Shown in pieces: positions 2,156 through 13,843 of a DNA stretch of 64,000 nucleotides; within the stretch, counting starts at the first letter, position 1, and every line of letters begins with the position of its first letter. The stretch lies in assembly GCA_965649055.1 (NCBI GenBank), contig CBFGJG010000004.1:7654-71653 (forward strand). Direction: 5' to 3'. Source of the DNA: a candidate division WOR-3 bacterium (GTDB lineage: Bacteria > Hydrothermota > UBA3072 > B12-G15). A program made the position numbers and the translations under genes. The notes under the pieces are model-generated. The model did not search any database and was not told the DNA's origin. It saw nothing but the letters and a program-made list of their open reading frames with translations.

Positions 2156-3709
2156 TTAAATAATCTCGATGTCTAATATTCTATCAAGTTTGAAGTTTCT
2201 TACTTCTTTTGACTTACTATCAAGACCTGAAACACCTAAAAATTTATGACCATCATATTCAAGTTCACCTACTTCGTAAGGCTCTAAAATTCTCTTTGAT
2301 TTCTCATCTGTTTTTTTTAAGTATGTTATCTCTATTTTTTTCTTGTTTTTAATTGCATTTTTAATTAATTCCATTTTTTCATCAGTTCCCATCTTCTTAT
2401 CTGCTAATTTATATTGATATCCGGTTATAAATTTGACTATTTTCTTGTCGTTAAATATGTGTCCCTTCGATACTTTTGTTTTTAATATTACACCATCTAT
2501 AGAGGTGCATCTACTTATTGCAACATAAAACTGGCCCGGTGCAAATATGCCGCTCCCAATATCTATTATTATCTTTTCGAATGTCTTTCCCTGACTTTTA
2601 TGAATGGTTATTGCCCATGCAAGGATAATAGGATACTGAATATATGTCCCTATAGTTTCTGTATCTATTTTTTTCTCTTTCTCATTGTAGTAATATCTGA
2701 ATAATTCCCATTTTACCCGATTTACTTCAACAATATTTTTATTTGTAAGTTCAACAATTATTATATCATTATCATCGTCTTCTTCAACATTTACTACTTT
2801 ACCGACACTGCCATTTATCCATCTTCCTTTGGAGTCATTGTTAACAAGCATAACCTGTGCACCTTTTTTTAAAACAATTTCTTCCGGACAGGGAAGATTT
2901 TCTTTCTTTTCCTGTATATTTTTAAATTCACCTTCTATAATACCCAAATATTTATATTCCCTTCCTTTTAATTCATTTAATCTTTTATTATTTATTTCTT
3001 CAGCCTTTTTGTTTGTAGTAACAAGATATATGTATGAATCATTTTTTGAAGGTTCAAAATCTGGTTTAAATCTTTTATTCAAATATTTAATATCTTTATC
3101 TTCAACAGTATTATTTCTTATTCTGTTCAACACTTCAATAAATTCTTGGTCTTCCTGTCTATAAATCTTCTCAAGTTCTACAAATTGCATATTTAATTCA
3201 TCAAAGATTTTAGATGAGAAAAAATATGGACTATTGTATTCCTTTTCAAAAATCTCGCTCTCTTCTTTCTTAACAACTGGTTGTAGTTGATATAAATCAC
3301 CAAAACAGACTAACTGAACACCACCAAAGGGTTTATTTTTTTTTCTTCCAAATTTTTTCATAAACTCGTGCATACAGTCAAATAGATCAGCACGAACCAT
3401 TGATATTTCATCAATAATTAATATATCAATGTTTTTATATAGTTCTGTATTTTTTATCTTTAATTTTCTTACTTTCTCAATAGTTATATCTGGTTTAAAC
3501 CTGAAAAAAGAATGTATAGTTTGACCATTTACATTCAAGGCAGCAACACCTGTTGGTGCAAGAACAACTACGTTCTTATCAGTTTTTTCCCTGAAATATT
3601 TTAAAAGTGAAGATTTTCCTGTTCCAGCCCTTCCTGTAATAAATACATTTTTGCCTTCTTCAATCAATTTTAATGCTTCTTCTATCTTTTCATTTATCTC
3701 AAAAATCAT
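2156..3709 (-). CDS. PIF1/RecD-family 5'-3' DNA helicase with a C-terminal WYL-like domain
   Basis: Motifs 'GRAGTGKSS', 'APTGVAA', 'TIHSFF', 'IDEISM', 'FGG' and 'GDLYQLQPV' are present. The C-terminal ~90 aa carry 'RNFKLDRI', typical of WYL domains. Confidence 0.85.
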   Translation of the reverse strand: MIFEINEKIEEALKLIEEGKNVFITGRAGTGKSSLLKYFREKTDKNVVVLAPTGVAALNVNGQTIHSFFRFKPDITIEKVRKLKIKNTELYKNIDILIIDEISMVRADLFDCMHEFMKKFGRKKNKPFGGVQLVCFGDLYQLQPVVKKEESEIFEKEYNSPYFFSSKIFDELNMQFVELEKIYRQEDQEFIEVLNRIRNNTVEDKDIKYLNKRFKPDFEPSKNDSYIYLVTTNKKAEEINNKRLNELKGREYKYLGIIEGEFKNIQEKKENLPCPEEIVLKKGAQVMLVNNDSKGRWINGSVGKVVNVEEDDDNDIIIVELTNKNIVEVNRVKWELFRYYYNEKEKKIDTETIGTYIQYPIILAWAITIHKSQGKTFEKIIIDIGSGIFAPGQFYVAISRCTSIDGVILKTKVSKGHIFNDKKIVKFITGYQYKLADKKMGTDEKMELIKNAIKNKKKIEITYLKKTDEKSKRILEPYEVGELEYDGHKFLGVSGLDSKSKEVRNFKLDRILDIEII

Positions 3710-5056
3710 CTAATCAATTGAGTGCAGAGGTAAACCAATAGATTTTAAGAGAACTTCCTTTATACCTTCTGAATAAGTGGGATGCGGAAATATCAATTCA
3801 AGGGATTCTTCAGGCTTAATCTTTTTAGAAATGAATGTGGAAAATATTGTGATGAGTTCTGAAGCGGTTTCTCCAACTATTACAGAACCGAGAATATATC
3901 CTTCTTCGCTTAAAAGTATCTTTACACCACCCTGGGTTTTGTCTTCTGCAACTGCCCTTCCATTCCCGCTGAACTTGAATATTTCTTTTCTGTATTTTAT
4001 CCCTTTTGAATTTAAAGACTCTTCGGTTTCACCACAAGCTGCATATTCAGGTTTTGTATACACAACCCTTGGAACAACACTTTCATTGAATTTTTTGCCT
4101 TCTCCAAGGATATTATCAACTGCAATCTCTGCTTCATAATAAGCAGTATGTGCAAGCATATTTCCACCAATACAATCACCTGCTGCATAAATATTTTTTA
4201 TGTCTGTCATTAAATAATCGTCAACCTTGATAAATCCTTTATGAACACTTATTGAATCAGGAATACCTTCTTTAGAAAGTTCTCTTCCTACAGAAACCAT
4301 TATTTTATCAAAAGATAAACTTTTTTCATTTCCTTCTTCAAAGATAATTTCCTTTTTACCATTATTTGATTTTATTTCCAGAACCTTTGTTTTCAAATGA
4401 AATCTTACTCCTATTTTTTCCATTTCTTTTCTTAAAATTGAAGAAAATTCACGGTCTTCATTAGGTAAAACTTCTTCCATTATTTCAAAGACTTCAACAG
4501 GGACACCAAGGCATCTATAAATATAAGCAAACTCAAGGCCTATAACACCACCGCCAATAATACCTATTGATTCTGGCAATTCTTGAGAGAATAAAGCATC
4601 TGAACTTGTCCAGTAATCGTCTGCTTTAAAAGGTGGTTTTTTAGTAATCGAACCTGTTGCAATCATTATTTTATCAAATTTATATTCTTTATTATCAGAA
4701 ACAATTGTATCTTCGGAAACCAATTCTGCCTTACTATTTATTATATTCACATTTCTTTTCTTTAAAAGTAAATTGATACCACCCTGAAGCCTTTTAGTTG
4801 AAATTTGAGGTGTCCTTGAAATTTCCTTCCAATCAAATTTGACACCATCAAATGATATACCCTTATTTTTCAGTTTATTTATATTATCAATATTTGATAC
4901 AAGTTTTATAAGTGATTTTACGGGAATACAACCTTCATTAACACATACTCCACCTATTTTATCCTTTTCAAATAAAGTAACATCTAAACCCAATAAAGAT
5001 GCCTTCAATGCACCAAGATAACCTGCTGGTCCACCACCAATTATTCCAAGCTTCAT
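3710..5056 (-). CDS. lpdA: Dihydrolipoyl dehydrogenase (E3)
   Basis: N-terminal FAD motif 'GGGPAGY', redox-active disulfide 'GGVCVNEGCIPVK', and a C-terminal dimerisation region containing 'HPTYSE'. Confidence 0.9.
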   Translation of the reverse strand: MKLGIIGGGPAGYLGALKASLLGLDVTLFEKDKIGGVCVNEGCIPVKSLIKLVSNIDNINKLKNKGISFDGVKFDWKEISRTPQISTKRLQGGINLLLKKRNVNIINSKAELVSEDTIVSDNKEYKFDKIMIATGSITKKPPFKADDYWTSSDALFSQELPESIGIIGGGVIGLEFAYIYRCLGVPVEVFEIMEEVLPNEDREFSSILRKEMEKIGVRFHLKTKVLEIKSNNGKKEIIFEEGNEKSLSFDKIMVSVGRELSKEGIPDSISVHKGFIKVDDYLMTDIKNIYAAGDCIGGNMLAHTAYYEAEIAVDNILGEGKKFNESVVPRVVYTKPEYAACGETEESLNSKGIKYRKEIFKFSGNGRAVAEDKTQGGVKILLSEEGYILGSVIVGETASELITIFSTFISKKIKPEESLELIFPHPTYSEGIKEVLLKSIGLPLHSID

Positions 5057-5991
5057 ATTCTCTCCCTTAGGACTGATTTTAATTCTTTTATAAATTCAAA
5101 TATGTTTCTATTTTTTATTGTAAATCCTGCTGCATTTCTGTGGCCACCACCATTGTAAATTCCTGCTATTGCGTCTACATCAACATCATTTTTTGAGCGA
5201 AGGGAGATTTTTAATTCATCATCCCTTTCCTTTACTATTGCAGCGGCCTTTACTCCATCTATCATAAGCCCGTACTGGACAACTTCTTCTGTGTCTTCTT
5301 CTTCTGTGTCAAATTTAGCCATCATTTCCTTTGTTACATACATAATGCTGAAACCGTCTTCAACATCAAGGGTTTCAAGGATAGCACCAAGAAGTCTGAT
5401 TTTTCCAAGGGTCTCTCTATACCAGATTCTTTCAGAAACAAGACTCGCATCAACACCATAACTTAAAAGTTCTGATGCTGTGCTCAAAGATTCAGCTGTT
5501 GTATTTGAATACCTGAAAGAACCAGTATCAGTAACAAGACCAAGATATAAATATGTTGCTATCTCTTTGTCAATTTCGCAGAAATTTTTCAATATCTCGT
5601 AGGCAATTTCACAGGTTGAAGAAACCTGTGAGCGAATAATATTTATTGTTCCAAAGAATTCATTACTTATATGATGGTCTATATTTAGAACTGGTTTGGT
5701 GAAATCAATTTTGTTTCTAATCTTACCAATCCTATCGGGGCTTGCCGAATCAAGTATTATTACTGCATCATAATCAGAATCAGGTGGTTCTGTCTTTATA
5801 ATTTCAATCTTTTCAAAATGCCTGAATCTTTTTGGAACAGGGTCGATATTGTATATATATGCATTTTTGCCTTTTTTCTTTAATGCAAGTGCAAATGCTA
5901 TCTGGGAACCGACTGCATCACCATCAGGGTTTTTGTGAGACGATATAAGGAAATCATCATATTTCGAAAGGAATTCTAATACTTCATCCAA
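5053..5991 (-). CDS. nrnA: DHH/DHHA1 phosphoesterase, NrnA-type nanoRNase / pAp phosphatase
   Basis: 'DHH' motif ('IDHHISN') and DHHA1 motif 'GGGHRNAAGF'. Confidence 0.85.
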   Translation of the reverse strand: MDEVLEFLSKYDDFLISSHKNPDGDAVGSQIAFALALKKKGKNAYIYNIDPVPKRFRHFEKIEIIKTEPPDSDYDAVIILDSASPDRIGKIRNKIDFTKPVLNIDHHISNEFFGTINIIRSQVSSTCEIAYEILKNFCEIDKEIATYLYLGLVTDTGSFRYSNTTAESLSTASELLSYGVDASLVSERIWYRETLGKIRLLGAILETLDVEDGFSIMYVTKEMMAKFDTEEEDTEEVVQYGLMIDGVKAAAIVKERDDELKISLRSKNDVDVDAIAGIYNGGGHRNAAGFTIKNRNIFEFIKELKSVLRERI

Positions 5992-6298
5992 TAATTTCTT
6001 CTCCTATTGTATTTTCAGTATCGTCATAGTGAAATGAAAGTCTTGGTGTGTATTTAAGTCTCATCTTTTCACCAAGCCTGTGGCTTATAAATCCGCTTGC
6101 CTTATTTAATATTTCTTCCATTCTGTATTTGTTCTCATCCTGTGATTTAAAATAGACCTTTGCATTTTTTAAATCACTCGAACAATCAACATCTGTTATT
6201 GAAATAAAATTTATTCTTGGGTCATTAATATCCTTTGCAATGATAAGAGAAATCTCTTTTCTCAATGTTACATTTATTCTATCTAATCTGTTTTTCAT
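5984..6298 (-). CDS. rbfA: Ribosome-binding factor A
   Basis: Size, the sequence 'RINVTLRKEISLII…DPRI', and its conserved position downstream of infB. Confidence 0.85.
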   Translation of the reverse strand: MKNRLDRINVTLRKEISLIIAKDINDPRINFISITDVDCSSDLKNAKVYFKSQDENKYRMEEILNKASGFISHRLGEKMRLKYTPRLSFHYDDTENTIGEEIIG

Positions 6299-6579
6299 TT
6301 TTTTATCTCCGTTTTATAGTTTATTATCTGAACATTGAAATCTCTTTCTATCTCTTTAATGGCTTCGGAAAGAACAGAATTTACTATGCTTGCTTCATTC
6401 CCGACGGTTGTGATTGCTATCAGCGACCTTTGCCAGGTATCATTATAACCAACTTCACTTATAGAAACATTAAACTTATTCCTTATTCTTGACTTTAATG
6501 GGTTTAAAATTCTCCTTTTTTCCTTTAATGAAGAAGACAAAGGTATGTGAATATCTATTGTTGTTAAACCGACTATCAT
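6295..6579 (-). CDS. DUF503 (YlxP-like) protein
   Basis: Conserved small protein found between infB and rbfA. The 'IHIP…SLKEKR' pattern matches DUF503. Confidence 0.75.
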   Translation of the reverse strand: MIVGLTTIDIHIPLSSSLKEKRRILNPLKSRIRNKFNVSISEVGYNDTWQRSLIAITTVGNEASIVNSVLSEAIKEIERDFNVQIINYKTEIKK

Positions 6580-8753
6580 AGTTCTCTTGCTTTTTCTGTT
6601 ACTTCGATTATTTCAATTATATCATCTTCTTTAAAATCTTCAAAATTCTCAACACCTATTCCGCATTCAAAGCCTTCCTGAACTTCTTTCACATCGTCTT
6701 TAAATCTTTTTAAGGACGATACTTTTGATTCACAAACAACTTCGCCATTCCTTATAACCCTGCATTTGTATCCCCTTACTACTTTACCAGATGTAACATA
6801 AGAACCTGCAATAATACCAATCTTTGGTATCTTGAATGTTGCTTTCACCTTAACTTTTCCGATAGTTTTTTCAATCTGTTCAGGCTCAAGCATTCCAGAC
6901 AATGCCTTTCGGACATCTTCAATTGCATCGTAGATTATATCATAAGTTCTTATTTCTACTCCTTCTGCCTTTGCTATTTCTTTTGTTTTAGCATTTGGTT
7001 TTACCCTGTAACCAATTATTATGGAATCAGAAGCAGATGCAAGAAGAACATCATTTTCATTTATTTCGCCAACAGCTTTATGAACTATGTTTACTTTTAT
7101 TTCATCTGTTCCAAGTTCAATAAAACTATCTGAGATTGCATCAACTGCACCCATATCTCCACCTTTAACAATAACATTGAGTTCTTTTAATTGACCAGAC
7201 ATTAAATCACTCTGTATTTTTTCAAGTGAAATCTTTTTCTTTCTTACAAGTGATTCCATTCTCTGTATCTGTGCCCTTTTCTCTGCAATCTCTCTTGCTT
7301 TCTTCTCATCTTTTATAACCTGAATAAGTTCCCCTGCGTGTGGTAATTCTTCAAAACTGCATATTTTTAAGGCAAGACCAGGGGTTGCTTCATTATAAAA
7401 TCTATTTCTTTCATCGACAATTCTTTTTATCTTTCCATAAGATATTCCTGCTACTACTGAATCACCAATCCTGAATCTTCCTTTTTTTACAACAGCAGTG
7501 CAGATATTACCAAATCCCTGTTCTTTCTTTGCTTCAATAACATAACCTTCACCGGGACCTTCAAAAGGTGCTTTTAGATTTTGATGCTCTGCAACAAGTA
7601 AGATTGATTCAAGAAGTTCATCTATACCTTCACCGGTTTTTGCAGATATGTCGACAGCAATCACATCTCCGCCATATTCCTGAACAAGCAATTTCTGGTC
7701 CGCAAGTTGTTGACGAACCATAAGTGGATTTGCGGTCGGAAGGTCTATTTTATTTATAGCAACAATTATAGGAACTCCAGCTGATTTTGCGTGATTTATA
7801 GCTTCAATGGTCTGTTCCTTAACGCCTTCAGTTGCGGACACAACAAGAATAACAATATCGGCAACTTTAGCTCCCCTTGCTCTCATCTGTGTAAATGCCT
7901 TATGACCGGGAAGGTCAATAAAGGTGATTATTTTACCGTTATATTCAACATGATAAGCACCTATCTTCTGTGTAATCTTTCCTTTCTCAAGTGCTGTGAG
8001 ATTTATGTTTTGGATATATTCAAGGAGGGTAGTCTTCCCGTGGTCTACATGACCCATAACTGTTATTACAGGTGGTTTTTCCCTGTAATCGCTGTATTCT
8101 TCTTCGGATATTTCTTTTTCAAATTCTTCATGAAGTTCAACTTTGAGGCCATAATCTTCTGCAAGAAGTGTTATTGTTTCAAAATCAAGTCTTTGATTAA
8201 TAGTAACAGGTAGACCAAGCTCAAGACATTTTAATATTATCGTGTTTGGTTCAACTTCAAGAACTTCTGCAAGTTCACTTACTGTTAGTGAAGAAGGTAT
8301 TTTTAATTTTTCTTCGTCTATCTCTATATTTTCAGCTATTTTCTTCTTTTTATATTTTTTCTTTCTCCCTTCTATCTTTGCCTTTGTCTCTTTTATTCTT
8401 TTTTCAATCTCTTTTTCATCTATCTTCTTTTTCTCTTTTCTCTTTTTCTTTTTTACAATTCCTTCCTGAGGTGCGACATATATCTCAAGTATTTCTTCTT
8501 CGGGAGGTTCTTCTGTTGTGATTACTTCTTCAATTTCTTTTGCAGGTTCTTCTTTCTTTATTTCCTTTTCTTCTTTTATTTCTTCCTTTATTTCTTTCTT
8601 CTTTTTTAGAGAATCTATTATTTTTTTCTCATCTTCTTCAGTTAGACTTCCAAGATATCCTTTAACAGAAAGACCAAGTTCGTTTATTATCTCAAGTATC
8701 TTTTCTTTTGTCAGGTTTAACTCTTTTGCAAGTATGTAGACTCTTTTTTTCAT
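6576..8753 (-). CDS. infB: Translation initiation factor IF-2
   Basis: G-domain motifs 'GHVDHGKTTLL', 'DLPGH' and 'NKID', preceded by an E/K-rich N-terminal low-complexity region. Confidence 0.97.
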   Translation of the reverse strand: MKKRVYILAKELNLTKEKILEIINELGLSVKGYLGSLTEEDEKKIIDSLKKKKEIKEEIKEEKEIKKEEPAKEIEEVITTEEPPEEEILEIYVAPQEGIVKKKKRKEKKKIDEKEIEKRIKETKAKIEGRKKKYKKKKIAENIEIDEEKLKIPSSLTVSELAEVLEVEPNTIILKCLELGLPVTINQRLDFETITLLAEDYGLKVELHEEFEKEISEEEYSDYREKPPVITVMGHVDHGKTTLLEYIQNINLTALEKGKITQKIGAYHVEYNGKIITFIDLPGHKAFTQMRARGAKVADIVILVVSATEGVKEQTIEAINHAKSAGVPIIVAINKIDLPTANPLMVRQQLADQKLLVQEYGGDVIAVDISAKTGEGIDELLESILLVAEHQNLKAPFEGPGEGYVIEAKKEQGFGNICTAVVKKGRFRIGDSVVAGISYGKIKRIVDERNRFYNEATPGLALKICSFEELPHAGELIQVIKDEKKAREIAEKRAQIQRMESLVRKKKISLEKIQSDLMSGQLKELNVIVKGGDMGAVDAISDSFIELGTDEIKVNIVHKAVGEINENDVLLASASDSIIIGYRVKPNAKTKEIAKAEGVEIRTYDIIYDAIEDVRKALSGMLEPEQIEKTIGKVKVKATFKIPKIGIIAGSYVTSGKVVRGYKCRVIRNGEVVCESKVSSLKRFKDDVKEVQEGFECGIGVENFEDFKEDDIIEIIEVTEKAREL

Positions 8754-10039
8754 TATTCACCTAAATTCAAAGCCTTATGTATCTCCATAAATATCTTATC
8801 AACTGTTTTTTTACCAAGTCCCGGTAATTTTATGAGTTCTTCTTCACTTGAAGACATAATGTCTTTTGCTGTTTTAAATCCATGTTTCTTTAAAATCTCA
8901 ACAACCTTCTCGTTTAAACCAAGTTCTTCAATCTTCAATTTTTTTCTCTTAGCTTCTTCTACTTCCTTGTGATGTTCAGACTGTGAAACAATCTGGATAT
9001 TATATCCTGTTATTTCATTCGCAAGTTTAATATTTGATTCATCTTTTCCTATTGCAGTTGAAACCTGATCATCCGGGACAACACATATTGCTTTATTACC
9101 TGGCTTTTTTATCATGACTTTTAAAACCTTTGCAAGTGAAAGAGATCTTCCTATGAACACTACCGGGTCAGCACTCCATGGAATAATATCTATTTTTTCA
9201 CCACTTAATTCCTTTGATATTCCCTGAATCCTTGTTCCCCTTGGTCCAACACATGCACCGAGCGGGTCAATCTTTTCATTCTTTGAGTAAACTGCAATTT
9301 TGCATCTAACGCCCGGGATCCTTACAATTTTCTTTATCTCAACTTCGTTTTTAAGTATCTCGGGAATTTCAAACTCAAGGAGTTTTGCTACAAATTGCTT
9401 GCTTGTCCTTGTAAGATATACAACAGGTCCTTTTATCTTTACCTTTTCCCTGTCAGAAGGTCTTTCTTCTACCATCTTTACAATTGCTTTTATAGTCTTA
9501 CCTTTCTTAACAATCTCATTTGGAATCATATCTTCTTTATCAATGAAGGCTTCTATGTCTACAAGTTTCACATAACATCCGGCAGCATAATGATTGGTAA
9601 TTGTTCCTGTTACAAGTTCCCCGATTTTATTCTGATATTTCTTAAGCATAATTTCTCTTTCAGATTCCTTAAATTTCTGTATGAGATTATTTTTAACCTG
9701 ATTTATTGTGTATCTGCTGAATAGTTCCGAGACAGGGTAAGGATAATATATTTTATCACCAACCTTTGCGTCAGGATTTATATTCAATGCATCTTCAAGT
9801 GAAATTTCTTCAATCTCGTTTTTTACATCTGTTTTGTTTCTCACCACCTTCTTTTCGAGATAAAGCTTCACTTCACCTGTTGATTCGGAAATTTCACATA
9901 TAAAACCTTCTTTTTTGTTAAATTTAAGTTCTGCAGCTTTAAGGATTGAATCCTTTAAAGCCGAGACAACAAATTGTTTATCAAATCCCTTTTCCCTTGC
10001 AAGTTCTGTTAACATCTCTACAACTTCTCTATTTATCAT
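8753..10039 (-). CDS. nusA: Transcription termination/antitermination factor NusA
   Basis: NusA N-terminal domain, S1 and KH domains ('GPRGTRIQ…'), and the conserved nusA–infB synteny. Confidence 0.95.
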
Positions 10040-10310
10040 AGTGCCTCCTATTTATCCCAGGTGAAGATACTTCAAGTGTGTATCTTGTTTTTATTAAGTC
10101 TTCAACATCAAGCCTTGTGGATAGTTCCTTTGATATCTTTACACAATCATCAAGGGTAATTCCACCCGGCTTATCAACAAAAACCCTTAAAATTTTTACT
10201 GGATATTTCATCTCAATTTCTATAAGTTCATATTTTTCATCTTCAAAAATGCTCAATGTTTCAAGCACAATTTTCTTTATTTTTTCTTTTAATTCTTCAA
10301 TTCCTTCCAT
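10029..10310 (-). CDS. rimP: Ribosome maturation factor RimP, short form (N-terminal domain only)
   Basis: 'LDVEDLI…[12 protein letters not shown]' matches the RimP N-domain. The ORF ends inside the nusA start overlap and has no C-terminal Sm-like domain. Confidence 0.75.
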
Positions 10311-11989
10311 ATTTTTTCAACACTTTCCTTTACTTTTTCTGGTTCTGTTTTTATTATTTCCCTGTTATCCCTTCTCGAGATTTCAACCTTTCCTTCTTTC
10401 ATAACTTTTGGACCAATCGTAATCCTGATTGGAATTCCAATCAAATCTGCATCTTTAAATTTAGCACCAGGCCCAATGTCTCTGTCGTCTAAGAGTATTT
10501 CGTATTTCTCTCCTAATATTTTATAAAGATTTTCGGAAATTTCAAGTGATTTATTATCTTTTATATCAACAAGGGTTATTATTGCATCAAAAGGGGATAT
10601 GGAAACAGGCCATATTATTCCATCTTTGTCGTTGTAAATTTCAATTGCAGTAGCCATAATTCTTTCAACACCTATACCATAACTTCCCATCACTATTGGT
10701 TTTTGTCTTCCATCTTTATCTGTGAAATTTGCACCTATTGCTTCGGAATACTTTCTTCCGAGTTTAAAAATATGTCCAAGCTCGATTGTGTTTTTTAATA
10801 TTATTTTTGAAGAACATTTCTTACATATATCACCTTCTTTTACATTTCTTATATCAACAAATTTTAATGGCTTAAAATCTCTTCCAATCTCAATTCCCTG
10901 AAGGTGATAATCATCTTTATTTGCGCCGCTCACAAGGTTTCTTCCATCTCTTAAACTTATATCAACATACGAAGGGATATTTAATCCGACAGGACTTATA
11001 TAACCTTTAGTGGCACCTGTAAATTTTTTAATCTCATCATCACTTGCCGGTCTTGAATTCTTAAATAATTGCAAGAATTTGTTTTCATTTACTTCGTAAT
11101 CACCCCTTATAAGGACAAAGAAAGGATTCCCGTTTTCATCAATATATAATAAACTTTTCATAAGCATATATTCAGGGACTGAAAGAAACTGAGATACTTC
11201 TTTTACAGAACCTGTGATGGGTGTATGAATTAATTTAAGGGAAGAACTTTCACCAAAATCCACAGGCAAAGGCTCTGTTTCAGCAACATCAATATTTGAA
11301 GAATATCCACATTTTTCACAAAAGACAATGCTGTCTTCGCCTGCTTTTGACGGAACCATAAATTCGTGAGATTGTGAACCACCCATAATTCCGCTTGATG
11401 CTGAAACAACTATAGTATTTAATTTAACCCGACTGAAAATTTTTTCATAGGCTTCATAATGAAGTTTATAACTTTTGTCAAGACCTTCTTCATTAATATC
11501 AAAAGAATAGGAATCCATCATTATAAATGTTCTTGCCCTTAAAACTCCACCCCTTGGCCTTAACTCGTCCCTGTATTTTATCTGGATTTGATACCACATT
11601 TGCGGAAGGTCATTATAGGATTTGATATCAATCCTTGCAAGCTCGGTCATTATTTCTTCGTGTGTTGGAGCAAGTGCATAATCCCTTTGTTTTCTGTCTT
11701 TTAAACGAAACATCTCGTCTCCGTATTCTTCCCATCTCCCTGTTTTTTCCCAGAGTTCTTTCGGGGTTAATGCAGGAAGCAATAGTTCCTGTGCCCCAAT
11801 TCTATCCATTTCTTCCCTTATTATATTTATGATTTTCTTAAGAACCTTCCATCCTAAAGGAAGATAAACATATACACCACTTGATAATAATTTTATAAAA
11901 CCACCCCTTAAAAGTAAAATATGGCTTATATTTGTTGCTTCTTTCGGTGTTTCTTTAAGGGTTGGTATGTAGCTTTCAGTCCATTTCAT
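10289..11989 (-). CDS. proS: Prolyl-tRNA synthetase (bacterial type with editing insertion)
   Basis: Class II aaRS motifs, N-terminal '[13 protein letters not shown]', and a C-terminal anticodon-binding domain. Confidence 0.95.
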
Positions 11990-12049
11990 AAATATAAAAT
12001 AACAAAATGTTATAATATGTCAATAAAAATTTAAACTTAAAAAAAATCC

Positions 12050-12078
12050 TTGACAAAATTTTAAAAATCATTTATAAT
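12050..12078 (+). promoter_or_regulatory. Consensus sigma70 promoter (TTGACA-17nt-TATAAT) reading rightwards into the non-coding repeat region
   Basis: Exact -35 TTGACA at 12050-12055, a 17-nt spacer, and exact -10 TATAAT at 12073-12078. Confidence 0.6.
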
Positions 12079-12200
12079 AAAAATACAAAATAAAAATTAA
12101 ATTCGCTCTTTGAAATTAGAATAGTTTTTTATACCGGATTAAGGGATAATTTATTACAAATTACTAACTTTGTAATAATTTTCCTGAACGACGCCTGAAG

Positions 12201-12341
12201 TTTTCCACATTTTTTCCACAACGAGATAACAAGTTATTGATAATAATTGAGTTATAGCGAAAATTAAAAAAAATTTCAAACTCATCGTCGTTGTGGTTCA
12301 AAATGAATGAGTTATGAAAAATGTGGATAAAATGTGGATAA
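12201..12341. promoter_or_regulatory. Cluster of four DnaA boxes in inverted arrangement (candidate oriC / DnaA-regulated element)
   Basis: Two TTTTCCACA boxes at 12201-12209 and 12212-12220, one mismatch from TTATCCACA. Two perfect TGTGGATAA boxes (the reverse complement of TTATCCACA) at 12322-12330 and 12333-12341. An inverted repeat ccacaacga/tcgttgtgg lies between them, and an extreme-AT tract lies at 12000-12120. Confidence 0.55.
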
Positions 12342-12405
12342 TTTTTAGGTCTGTGTCGGAAATGCCCTTATAAGTTATTGGTGTTAAATAACTTTCAAGG
12401 GGTGC

Positions 12406-12705
12406 TGTAGCAATCGAACTCCCGTAAGATCGGGATTGCAACCGCATCGATGAAATCGCTCAACTTCATAGCGTTCCTCCTTTGTAGCAATCGAACTCCC
12501 GTAAGATCGGGCTCGAAATAATGGGGACTAGGGATTAGGCATTAGGGACTGGTATATAATAAGTTTATATTTCGATAAAGAATAGATGTGAGAATATAAA
12601 TAAAATGCTTACAAGACTTTATAAGTCTATTAAATAACTAATCCCCAGTCACGAGTCCCCAGTCCCTAAAACACTCCCGTAATATCGGGCTCGAAATAAT
12701 GGGGA
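12406..12705 (+). repeat. Short direct-repeat family with hairpin potential (CCCG-N6-CGGG). Two identical 29-nt copies are separated by a 48-nt unique segment, followed by a third 33-nt partial copy.
   Basis: TGTAGCAATCGAACTCCCGTAAGATCGGG occurs at 12406-12434 and 12483-12511. ACTCCCGTAA[G/T]ATCGGGCTCGAAATAATGGGGA occurs at 12494-12527 and 12673-12705. GC-rich inverted repeats (…TTAGGGACTGG / CCAGTCCCTAA…) flank a ~110-bp AT-rich loop at 12523-12681. Confidence 0.5.
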
Positions 12706-12730
12706 TTAGAGACTTGTGGAATATGGAATA

Positions 12731-12856
12731 ATGTTAGTAGATGATTTGGATGTTTTTAAATTATCACATGGAATTTTATTAAAGGTTTATGAGCTAACGA
12801 GAGAATTTCAAAAAGATAAGATATTTAATTTAACAATGCAATTAAGACGGATATAA
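12731..12856 (+). pseudogene. Truncated four-helix-bundle protein gene (PF05635 / '23S rRNA intervening-sequence protein' / DGR Avd-like family), with a possible further decayed remnant up to ~12930
   Basis: The 41-aa ORF 'MLVDDLDVFKLSHGILLKVYELTREFQKDKIFNLTMQLRRI*' matches the N-terminal half of that family (…LxVWkkA.eLv.eIYklT.kFPkeEkFgLTSQlRRAAvSi…). A stop codon cuts it off where the family continues. Downstream, 'IEGGQKKIERQLLI' may be a frame-shifted remainder. Confidence 0.45.
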
Positions 12857-13205
12857 AGTTCTATATCTATAAATTAAATTGAGGGTGGGCAAAAAAAGAT
12901 TGAAAGACAATTGTTAATAATTTTTTTGATAATTTGAATCCTTATATAAACATTTTATAAATTTCAATCAGGTATTATTAATAGTCTGGTTAAACTATTT
13001 TCCTTAGAGTGTTTTACAATTTATAAACTCATCTGGAATTTCATTATTCAAAATATCAAATAAGCCATTTATTAGAAGATTCACATTAGCAATATTAATT
13101 TGGTTTCTTTCTTATATACAGATTAACAAAAAGGTGAATGGGCAGATTTTTAATGGTTAAGATAGCAATATATTTTGGGAAAATTAAAAAATAACAAAGA
13201 TTTAT

Positions 13206-13234
13206 TTGACAAAAATTTTTTTAACTTTACAATA
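13206..13234 (+). promoter_or_regulatory. Near-consensus sigma70 promoter for the C25 propeptide/peptidase genes
   Basis: TTGACA at 13206-13211, a 16-17 nt spacer, then TACAAT/ACAATA. An AGGAGG RBS sits 7 nt before the ATG at 13256. Confidence 0.5.
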
Positions 13235-13255
13235 ATAAATAAACAGGAGGTATTT

Positions 13256-13843
13256 ATGATTCTCTTATTCGTTTTAATAAATACAGATTTCACCTATATT
13301 TTAAAGTGTTCAGAACCTGAAATTATCTCTGAAAATGGATATGTGAAACTATCTTTGACTGATTATAATTATTTAAGAATTCCTGGTAAACCTGAAATGC
13401 CGTTTAAACCAATTGTATTTCTTCTGCCACCTGATGCAATCTTTAAAACAATTTCTTTTGAATTACTTGATTCGACAATAATAGACCTTCATAACCTTAT
13501 ATTTCCTGCTCAAAGATATATACCATTTTTTAAAGATAGTAAGGTAGAAAGGGTTGAACCTGATAAAAATGTATACAGTTCGAATGAACCTTATCCCGGG
13601 ATATTAATAAAGAGTTTCGGAGAAAGCAGGAAAGGCGTCTTCAGACTTTTGACAATTAATATCTATCCAATCCAGTATATACCAGCGCTTAACAGGTTAA
13701 TTATATACGATATCAAGTTAAGAATTGAATATGAAAACTCTGACAAATTCGTGAAGATAAACAGAAATCAATTTGAATTCCATAAGAAGGGTGTTGAGAA
13801 GTTAGTAATAAATCCAGAAATGATTGATTATTACAGGAGGTAA
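13256..13843 (+). CDS. Stand-alone peptidase-C25 (gingipain-type) N-terminal propeptide-domain protein with signal peptide
   Basis: The start is placed at the Met with a strong RBS; the ORF track begins at 13175. 'ENGYVKLSL…IPGKPEMPFKPIVFLLPPDA…FPAQ…YPG…RLLTINIYPIQYIPA' follows the Propeptide_C25 pattern (G.PxLP…LPP.A…P…YP…R…L.I.P.qY.P). Confidence 0.65.
   Translation: MILLFVLINTDFTYILKCSEPEIISENGYVKLSLTDYNYLRIPGKPEMPFKPIVFLLPPDAIFKTISFELLDSTIIDLHNLIFPAQRYIPFFKDSKVERVEPDKNVYSSNEPYPGILIKSFGESRKGVFRLLTINIYPIQYIPALNRLIIYDIKLRIEYENSDKFVKINRNQFEFHKKGVEKLVINPEMIDYYRR

Follow-up and report, generated by a model that had tools for sequence, protein, structure and literature searches.

DnaA docking sites in bacterial chromosomes

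The unit bound by a DnaA dimer in E. coli is the double box, i.e. two 9-mers placed 2 bp apart. In vivo, E. coli DnaA prefers double boxes with gaps of 2-3 bp, oriC being one of 16 bound regions (PMC11317965), and in B. subtilis eight intergenic regions are stably bound by the protein, oriC1 and oriC2 among them (PMC2533591). The basal unwinding system (BUS) of origins is searched for with a different rule, which asks for tandem boxes, a short spacer and DnaA-trios (PMC8287927).

The DnaA boxes described here lie in an intergenic gap of 1267 bp, the largest in the window, i.e. the whole 64-kb stretch of DNA that was analysed, which belongs to an uncultured WOR-3/Stahlbacteria lineage. The original prediction read this gap as a candidate replication origin and named a DnaA-titration or regulatory site as the fallback. 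Our analysis upholds a DnaA-box cluster that is not due to chance but not its origin role, since the window shows neither a polarity switch at synonymous sites nor origin marker genes or parS, and the position is not conserved in relatives; the fallback is now better supported than oriC.

Two convergent double DnaA boxes form a genuine cluster

All four boxes of the original prediction, two perfect and two with one mismatch, were found. They make up two double boxes with 2-bp gaps and an internal start-to-start spacing of 11 bp. Double box A (12201-12220, plus strand, TTTTCCACA-tt-TTTTCCACA) consists of units at 12201-12209 and 12212-12220 with one mismatch each and faces right, and double box B (12322-12341, minus strand, TTATCCACA-tt-TTATCCACA) consists of perfect units at 12322-12330 and 12333-12341 and faces left, so that both look toward the centre of an inverted arrangement in which the tandem pairs are 101 bp apart (spacer 12221-12321, 74% AT) and the strong boxes span 141 bp. 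Both are double boxes as defined in PMC11317965 (mismatches 1+1 and 0+0, gaps of 2 bp), and they are the only good ones in the 64 kb. A fifth, weak box with two mismatches (TGAACCACA, 12292-12300, minus strand) overlaps the tcgttgtgg arm of the ccacaacga/tcgttgtgg palindrome; these two sequences (12216-12224 and 12287-12295) are a true inverted pair, but they lie off-centre and not at the centre where they had been placed.

Four perfect boxes occur in the window against 0.81 expected, and boxes with at most one mismatch number 26 against 24 expected. The latter are not enriched window-wide and the signal is therefore one of clustering: of 2000 replicates shuffled inside 500-bp blocks, a single one contained four boxes within 150 bp. 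Box density was also the check proposed with the original prediction, and across the 64-kb window, to which this check was applied, it peaks at the cluster, with no other good double box to rival it. That the cluster is genuine rather than a chance product is thus well supported. From its sequence the locus is very probably a true DnaA-binding site; as to function, we tentatively favour a cluster for docking or regulation outside the origin, comparable to datA, DARS and the DBCs, at somewhat less than even confidence.

The same architecture, i.e. TCCACA-N5-TCCACA, 86-116 nt of 70-78% AT and TGTGGA-N5-TGTGGA, was found in at least 21 metagenomic loci, where it adjoins dnaA. The convergent two-pair layout is not confined to origins: it was also found between convergent genes (L070, L074), in phage contigs (L104, L112) and next to a cargo gene of type IX secretion (T9SS; L088).

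The gap carries an AT-rich tract with back-to-back promoters

The extreme-AT tract of the original prediction was confirmed, no other 100 bp of the window being as rich in AT. It extends over 11982-12105, reaches up to 90% AT per 100 bp and is alone in the 64 kb in attaining 88% AT over that length. Two back-to-back promoters are carried by this tract. One is a perfect sigma-70 consensus (12050-12078, plus strand, TTGACA-17 nt-TATAAT) that reads rightward across the DnaA boxes toward a pair of CRISPR-like repeats; the other, a candidate proS promoter, occupies 11996-12023 on the minus strand (TTGACA-16 nt-TATTTT, with an extended TG). Relative to the consensus promoter the boxes are in a roadblock position, about 120-260 nt downstream of it; they are upstream of the candidate proS promoter by about 180-345 bp, and the promoter of the right operon is about 865 bp away. 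No product is evident for the orphan transcript that would start from the promoter at 12050-12078: 12080-12400 contains no small ORF that is credible, and no Rfam RNA lies downstream of the promoter, searches for Rfam families and tRNAs in the gap and in the window being empty.

Synonymous sites argue against a replication origin

The best-surviving alternative, which we nevertheless regard as unlikely, is that the gap between proS and the T9SS peptidase operon holds a non-canonical chromosomal oriC, or the DnaA-box half of one. DnaA would then load on the double boxes, and unwinding would take place in the 101-bp spacer or in the 11982-12105 tract, aided by transcription from promoters on its flanks, as happens with the mioC and gidA promoters at E. 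coli oriC. The top box density, the most AT-rich tract and the largest intergenic region of the window coincide here in favour of such an origin, as does the occurrence of an identical layout in the rnpA-dnaA gap of many bacteria; moreover, oriC is not always near dnaA (PMC10225481).

Divergent operons and strand bias on either side also speak for an origin, with 71-83% of the coding bases co-oriented with outward replication and the proS-rimP-nusA-infB operon pointing away from the site. The gene divergence emphasized in the original prediction holds locally, but the window contains four such junctions in all (at about 12-13 kb, 28.3 kb, 31.1 kb and 42.5 kb), and the left-side gene at 31-2016 is on the plus strand. 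The raw cumulative GC skew has its minimum at 11-13 kb, as an origin would demand. However, this V follows the coding strand and the argument from skew plus gene orientation is therefore circular. Whole-gene GC skew is equal in the left minus-strand (0.236) and the right plus-strand genes (0.224) and lower in the right minus-strand genes (0.082), again as expected of an origin, and at first codon positions the left genes match the right plus-strand genes too. All three measures (raw, whole-gene and first-codon-position skew) were rejected as origin evidence because they follow the coding strand and the type of protein.

At synonymous sites the left minus-strand genes resemble the right minus-strand genes instead: G/(G+C) at 4-fold sites is 0.364 in the left minus-strand, 0.423 in the right minus-strand and 0.522 in the right plus-strand genes, and the codon-usage scores of these groups are -0.06, -0.91 and +1.53, respectively. 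A change-point scan of synonymous sites, with 12 kb available to the left of the locus, was best explained by no switch (dLL 27.7 vs 11.4 for a switch at 12.6 kb; log-likelihood gap of 17), and no switch won in 99.15% of gene bootstraps against 0.85% for the switch, with the same outcome in the translation and non-translation subsets. The GC-skew check within the 64-kb window thus lent the original prediction no independent support: the raw minimum is at the site, yet polarity does not change at synonymous sites, whose composition indicates that the locus is replicated in a single direction. This test would be blunted, or a switch masked, if the left block had been inverted recently, which is possible; synteny with L009, a relative at 83% identity, breaks exactly at 12030.

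Unwinding geometry was approached with a rule that takes a box, a spacer of at most 16 bp and then at least three DnaA-trios or an AT-rich tract downstream of the box. Five NTN triplets at 12234-12248, 13 nt past box A2, formally fit this DnaA-trio pattern and have to be counted for an origin, but BUS-like patterns arise at random positions of this DNA with a frequency of about 8% for five or more triplets and of 34-47% (around 40%) for three or more. The DnaA-trio score was dropped as origin evidence, the pattern being at chance level in AT-rich DNA. In addition, the 90%-AT tract lies upstream of pair A and not downstream, i.e. on the wrong side for box-to-trio unwinding, if the orientation rule reportedly embodied in the B. 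subtilis incC sequence is applied.

A further point against an origin is the small number of boxes, four or five. The original prediction noted no dnaA or dnaN nearby, and neither is found in the 64 kb by Pfam/NCBIfam annotation, about 18 kb of the 82,342-bp source contig lying outside the window. A DnaA HMM had no match in the six-frame translation of the 64 kb, no parS was detected there with up to three mismatches allowed, and dnaN, recF, gyrB, gidA/B and parAB, the other usual markers, were absent from the Pfam/NCBIfam annotation of ORFs of at least 150 aa, a scan for which rpmH and rnpA are too short.

Positional conservation fails as well, both flanks occurring in relatives in other contexts and without the box cluster (ProS at 64-83% identity, peptidase at 77%). 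On the proS side no cluster was found in the WOR-3/Stahlbacteria MAGs L001-L003 (55-61% identity), L132/L133 (64%) and L009 (83%), all with short or co-oriented proS upstream regions; homology with L009, the closest relative, stops at 12029. On the side of the peptidase operon the 77% relatives L010-L014 show other neighbours, an IS element or a contig end, but no cluster; alignments with the right-flank relatives do not begin before about 13374. Lastly, the gap of the supposed origin has a CRISPR remnant and a pseudogene, and a consensus promoter reads into its boxes.

A palindromic mobile or phage module is less likely still

All the boxes are included in an imperfect palindrome of about 155 bp (12193-12350), a single strand of which folds into one long hairpin (-48.3 kcal/mol, z = -7.0), with 23-nt arms (12198-12220 and 12322-12344) that are 87% complementary. 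This would agree with the idea that the boxes belong to a MITE-like element, or to a phage or plasmid remnant for replication or early control that used host DnaA and was dropped into a rearrangement-prone gap, perhaps with no current function for the host. Viral sequences lend this alternative some weight. An exact copy of the 20-mer TGTGGATAAAATGTGGATAA is present in 44 IMG/VR viral contigs, frequently inside longer box arrays with 11-bp phasing, and in three phage-like contigs (L038, L040, L036) the likeness to 12301-12347 extends past the fixed 20-mer over 45-46 bp at 84-87% identity; the four-box layout is present in phage contigs with terminase and GP88 genes, and the surrounding gap has no homologue in relatives. 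Against this, the module is in single copy in the 64 kb, related contigs totalling about 200 kb lack it, no target-site duplication can be seen, and no phage, integrase or Rep genes are nearby. Plasmid and phage records yielded no BLAST match to 12000-13256, the flank consensus across the viral matches is reduced to CTTT, and PHROG annotation of the genes beside the phage twin-box sites was not informative. A mobile or phage origin of the palindrome is, on balance, doubtful.

The boxes adjoin an orphan CRISPR-like remnant

An orphan CRISPR-like mini-array (12407-12519, plus strand) with two repeats and one 41-nt spacer begins 65 bp past box B2. Repeat 1 is at 12407-12442 (GTAGCAATCGAACTCCCGTAAGATCGGGATTGCAAC) and repeat 2, degenerate at its 3' end, at 12484-12519, both on the plus strand. 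Were a crRNA made and processed from this array, its 5' tag would be ATTGCAAC. Its similarity to the T. thermophilus type 1 repeat GTTGCAAGGGATTGAGCCCCGTAAGGGGATTGCGAC (PMC12102369) gives the array's repeat a plus orientation and thus puts 12079-12406, with the boxes, in the position of a leader. CRISPR leaders are AT-rich stretches that carry a promoter and directly precede the first repeat; this is also seen here, the promoter being a perfect one, and the degenerate repeat is distal, as in real arrays. It could be imagined on these grounds that the boxes are a working part of the leader and that DnaA, depending on the state of replication, gates the transcription of crRNA or the integration of spacers. 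We consider this role very improbable, and even more so the specific proposal that a DnaA-bound leader couples crRNA expression or leader-proximal spacer integration to the state of replication initiation. The array is limited to two repeats and one spacer, no cas genes were found in the Pfam/NCBIfam annotation of ORFs of the 64 kb, and neither repeat nor spacer has a match in IMG/VR. We found no other array with the GTAGCAATCGAACTCCCGTAAGATCGGGATTGCAAC repeat that could serve for leader comparison and no literature precedent for a link between DnaA and CRISPR, and adjacency by itself is no proof of function. Further along the gap, at 12731-12856 on the plus strand, a truncated pseudogene of a four-helix-bundle protein (23S rRNA intervening-sequence protein, PF05635) is a sign of decaying DNA.

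That the boxes are sites of another factor, or a chance palindrome matching a general bacterial consensus which may not be that of this lineage, would agree with the missing window-wide enrichment of one-mismatch boxes but is hardly credible given two perfect and two identical one-mismatch 9-mers with the canonical 2-bp gap, clustered as in a single one of the 2000 shuffles and in an arrangement that adjoins dnaA genes in many organisms.

A putative non-origin DnaA cluster and its implications

Under the non-origin reading that we favour, cooperative DnaA oligomers would form on each arm of the palindrome and perhaps bridge the spacer, keeping DnaA away from the true origin. The location of the boxes 120-260 nt downstream of the consensus promoter further suggests that bound DnaA may act as a roadblock to the transcript from 12050-12078. 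The cluster lies within a lineage-specific, decaying patch of 1.27 kb, with the orphan promoter, the CRISPR remnant and the pseudogene, probably born of rearrangement. Several of the observations described above count against a non-origin function, namely the largest gap, the most AT-rich tract, the divergent operons and the strand bias, as well as the match in whole-gene and first-position skew and the at least 21 dnaA-adjacent loci with the same layout.

If the locus were an origin it would offer a first look at the placement of oriC in the uncultured WOR-3/Stahlbacteria lineage and would add another oriC uncoupled from dnaA, a situation that is already well known. If it is a non-origin docking site, the double DnaA box rule and clusters in the style of datA and the DBCs reach into a deep uncultured lineage. 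Beyond this locus, a raw GC-skew V together with divergent genes can mimic an origin in low-GC genomes, and synonymous-site skew should be examined before any site is named oriC.

Comparison with known systems

The cluster upstream of dnaA in Firmicutes (rnpA-dnaA gap; oriC1/incA-B) has an architecture identical to that of our locus, which differs in having no annotated dnaA, dnaN, rnpA or recF linked to it and, compared with a Firmicutes oriC, no second box cluster in the window to act as the unwinding half. In C. difficile, unwinding is said to occur on the dnaA-dnaN side and not at the upstream cluster. With the BUS the locus shares tandem boxes separated by a gap of at most 3 bp, a 13-nt spacer and five NTN triplets (PMC8287927). 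Unlike in the BUS, the spacer is not GC-rich, both pairs face inward, the triplet run is at chance level, and the most AT-rich tract is on the opposite side of pair A. E. coli oriC, with its mioC and gidA promoters, is similar in that one promoter reads into the box region and another away from it across an AT-rich stretch, but here the inward transcript runs into a CRISPR remnant and not into a gene. To our knowledge, neither datA nor DARS is laid out as a convergent two-pair palindrome. The datA, DARS and DBC clusters are stably DnaA-bound away from the unwinding site (PMC11317965, PMC2533591). What the locus has in common with E. coli datA, DARS1 and DARS2 and with the B. subtilis DBCs is a small set of intergenic boxes, here of probable high affinity, arranged in pairs 2-3 bp apart.

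DnaA boxes and their arrangement

Two double DnaA boxes face each other in the 1267-bp intergenic region that separates proS from a type IX secretion (T9SS) peptidase operon, by far the largest intergenic region of the window. A consensus scan located boxes A1 and A2 (TTTTCCACA) on the plus strand at 12201-12209 and 12212-12220 (pair A), and the perfect consensus matches B1 and B2 (TTATCCACA) on the minus strand at 12322-12330 and 12333-12341 (pair B), precisely where the original prediction had placed its four boxes. Within each pair the boxes are head-to-tail duplicates with an 11-bp periodicity, i.e. a 2-bp gap (repeat families D11 and I2), and 101 bp of 74% AT separate the two pairs. Boxes with one mismatch at most are not enriched window-wide (26 versus 24 expected); perfect boxes are (4 versus 0.81), and four or more boxes per 150 bp arose in only 1 of 2000 shuffles preserving local composition. 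A scan of the 64 kb for double boxes (gap of 2-3 bp, up to 4 mismatches summed over both boxes) retrieved pairs A and B as the sole good ones. The predicted ccacaacga/tcgttgtgg palindrome held in that its arms are inverted; it belongs to an imperfect palindrome (12193-12350) folding as single strand into one long hairpin (-48.3 kcal/mol, z = -7.0), and a fifth, weaker box (TGAACCACA, 12292-12300, minus strand) overlaps the tcgttgtgg arm. The adjacent AT tract (11982-12105) is equally real, being the only 100-bp window with at least 88% AT in the 64 kb. With both cluster and tract verified, the observation is confirmed and not due to chance.

The in vivo targets of E. coli DnaA are nearly exclusively double boxes 2-3 bp apart (PMC11317965). 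Binding of DnaA to the cluster is a well-supported prediction. As to what such binding would serve, we tentatively favour a non-origin docking or regulatory site, which is where the fallback of the original prediction, DnaA titration or regulation, becomes the leading reading.

The search rule for the basal unwinding system (BUS) of bacterial origins asks for a box, a spacer of at most 16 bp and at least three triplets whose middle base on the bound strand is A (PMC8287927). Box A2 formally fits, with a 13-nt spacer followed by TTA TTG ATA ATA ATT, in a region where such runs occur at about 8% (at least five triplets) or 34-47% (at least three) of random positions. A lead on direction comes from B. 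subtilis incC, where the trios are found 3' of the box when the TTATCCACA strand is read. Following that layout, pairs A and B would both steer DnaA towards the spacer between them, leaving the 90%-AT tract behind pair A.

Gene context and positional conservation

To the left of the gap lies the minus-strand operon proS, rimP, nusA, infB, DUF503, rbfA, nrnA and lpdA, beyond which comes a RecD-like helicase; to the right, on the plus strand, are a small protein, the C25/PorU-like T9SS peptidase, thiL and an ARMT1-like phosphatase. The divergence noticed at 12-13 kb is genuine; with it the window counts four divergent junctions, and a gene on the left (31-2016) sits on the plus strand. The window also carries dnaB, radA, addAB-like nucleases, secDF and chemotaxis genes. 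The absence of dnaA and dnaN from the vicinity extends to the whole 64 kb: a DnaA HMM had no match in the six-frame translation, and Pfam/NCBIfam annotation of ORFs of at least 150 aa, a cut-off that excludes short genes such as rnpA and rpmH, yielded no dnaN, recF, gyrB, parAB, gidAB or cas genes. Likewise, no parS was found in the window.

By its ProS, which shares 55-61% identity with theirs, the organism falls among WOR-3/Stahlbacteria-like MAGs; an identical ProS is encoded on an 82,342-bp NCBI contig. In the closest relative (L009, 83% identity), where proS-rimP lies at a contig end, nucleotide homology covers proS and its promoter and ends at window position 12029; upstream, this relative has a 171-bp gap and a different divergent gene, with no DnaA boxes. 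A 64% relative (L132/L133) keeps the whole operon from proS to lpdA (window 2156-11989) with a co-oriented gene 37 bp upstream of proS. On the right flank, the peptidase pair of the 77% relatives adjoins different genes, an IS element or the end of a contig, and homology begins only within the first coding region. No comparable box cluster occurs in about 200 kb of related contigs. On these comparisons the 12030-13256 patch is lineage-specific at this position, and since all DNA upstream of proS differs among these genomes, proS marks a recurrent rearrangement breakpoint in the lineage.

Replication polarity and the origin reading

Raw GC skew forms a V at 11-13 kb, yet it tracks gene orientation throughout the window; genes were therefore split into left minus (LM), left plus (LP), right plus (RP) and right minus (RM) groups relative to the gap. 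By whole-gene and first-codon-position skew LM resembles RP, which we judge to reflect protein type: presumably most LM genes encode soluble proteins of translation and housekeeping, in which GNN codons abound, and several of the RM group encode membrane proteins. Synonymous sites reverse this picture and group LM with RM: G/(G+C) at 4-fold sites is 0.364 in LM, 0.423 in RM and 0.522 in RP; the corresponding values at 2-fold sites are 0.277, 0.255 and 0.323 for G/(A+G) and 0.739, 0.720 and 0.771 for T/(C+T). The RP-RM difference is the classical leading-strand enrichment of G and T, and a leave-one-out codon-usage score separates RP (+1.53, SD 1.29) from RM (-0.91, SD 0.96), with LM at -0.06 (SD 0.93). 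In a change-point scan of synonymous sites the no-switch model was best (dLL 27.7, against 11.4 for a switch at 12.6 kb), the switch model being ahead in 0.85% of 2000 gene bootstraps. This outcome was unchanged with translation genes only, with non-translation genes only or without gene 31-2016. The scan covers only 12 kb to the left of the site, and a switch would also be masked if the left block had been inverted recently; the point at which synteny with the closest relative is lost is exactly 12030. The plus strand thus looks like the leading strand on either side of the site, and the enrichment of G and T on it at synonymous sites, plus versus minus genes over the whole window (dLL 27.7), implies a single replication direction across the 64 kb. 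In that case replication would meet the highly expressed nusA-infB operon head-on.

Origins located away from dnaA are established (PMC10225481). The gap is the largest and most AT-rich of the window, it parts divergent operons with a strand bias, and the same architecture adjoins dnaA in other organisms. Nonetheless, the synonymous sites record no polarity switch, marker genes were not found in the window, the position is not conserved in relatives, the boxes are few, their geometry is atypical, and their surroundings are decaying. Therefore, the proposal that the cluster is oriC is unlikely, and we rank it below a non-origin docking or regulatory cluster.

The same architecture in other DNA

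A structural pattern (TCCACA-N5-TCCACA, 86-116 nt, TGTGGA-N5-TGTGGA) matched 73 metagenomic loci, many of them 11-bp satellites. At least 21 of the loci, by contrast with the satellites, hold genuine clusters of DnaA boxes immediately next to dnaA, in the order rnpA, boxes, dnaA, dnaN, recF. Away from dnaA, the four-box architecture lies between convergent genes on two bacterial contigs (L070 4276-4419, EF-G-like and secretin; L074 3631-3776, ABC-F and tsaD) and beside a T9SS cargo gene on a third (L088 4188-4315); these three are candidate non-origin DnaA reservoirs of other lineages.

A mobile or phage-derived palindromic module is an unlikely source of the cluster. The architecture does recur within two phage contigs carrying terminase and GP88 genes (L104, L112), and an exact copy of the pair B 20-mer is present in 44 IMG/VR contigs, in many cases as part of longer box arrays of 11-bp phase; the gap itself had no match among plasmid and phage records. 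Three phage-like contigs of about 27-30% GC (L038 7400-7470, L040 3360-3430 and L036) carry the twin box in gaps of about 0.8 kb upstream of small early-looking genes, with a flank (AATCAATCAGTTATG..ATGTGGATAAAATGTGGATAACTTT) that matches window 12301-12347 at 84-87% identity over 45-46 bp, a likeness that may reflect convergence or a common DnaA-recruiting module.

Judged by this distribution, the box module is a widespread DnaA-assembly unit of canonical origins, phages and other chromosomal sites, and a module common to all of these does not by itself identify an origin.

Surroundings of the boxes and comparison with known systems

Reading into the DnaA boxes is a plus-strand promoter (12050-12078) that matches the sigma-70 consensus perfectly (TTGACA-17 nt-TATAAT). 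It has no gene downstream; its predicted transcript crosses the boxes into a CRISPR remnant, and under the docking reading boxes bound by DnaA could act as a roadblock to it. A candidate proS promoter (12023-11996, minus strand) faces the opposite way, and the promoter search assigned the right operon its own promoter (13206-13233, plus strand), whose -35 context (TTGACAAAAATTT) is near-identical to that of the consensus promoter.

The remnant, an orphan CRISPR-like mini-array (12407-12519, a 41-nt spacer and two 36-nt repeats GTAGCAATCGAACTCCCGTAAGATCGGGATTGCAAC, of which the second has a degenerate 3' end), begins 65 bp past box B2. Its repeat resembles the type 1 repeat of T. thermophilus HB27, GTTGCAAGGGATTGAGCCCCGTAAGGGGATTGCGAC (PMC12102369), which orients the array on the plus strand and places the boxes at the leader position. 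That they are a functional, DnaA-gated leader element is nevertheless very unlikely: neither repeat nor spacer has a match in IMG/VR, and the annotated ORFs of at least 150 aa include no cas genes. A partial third copy lies at 12673-12712. G-rich heptamer repeats (GGGGACT AGGGATT AGGCATT AGGGACT) and an inverted partner with CCCCAGT twice (12523-12550 and 12638-12667) lie on either side of about 90 bp of AT-rich DNA; a 40-mer present twice at 93% identity (12495-12534 and 12673-12712) brackets them. A truncated pseudogene of a four-helix-bundle/23S rRNA intervening-sequence protein follows (12731-12856, plus strand; PF05635, E = 3.5e-6), matching the 106-position profile from its start to about position 37 only. 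Rfam and tRNA scans of the gap were negative, and no small ORF in it is credible. The boxes lie in a decaying patchwork.

That the boxes are not DnaA sites at all is very unlikely for matches so clustered, even with near-matches at their expected frequency in the window. [quoted passage not shown] Non-origin DnaA-box clusters are thus already established, and the present one would add a further case, in an uncultured lineage.
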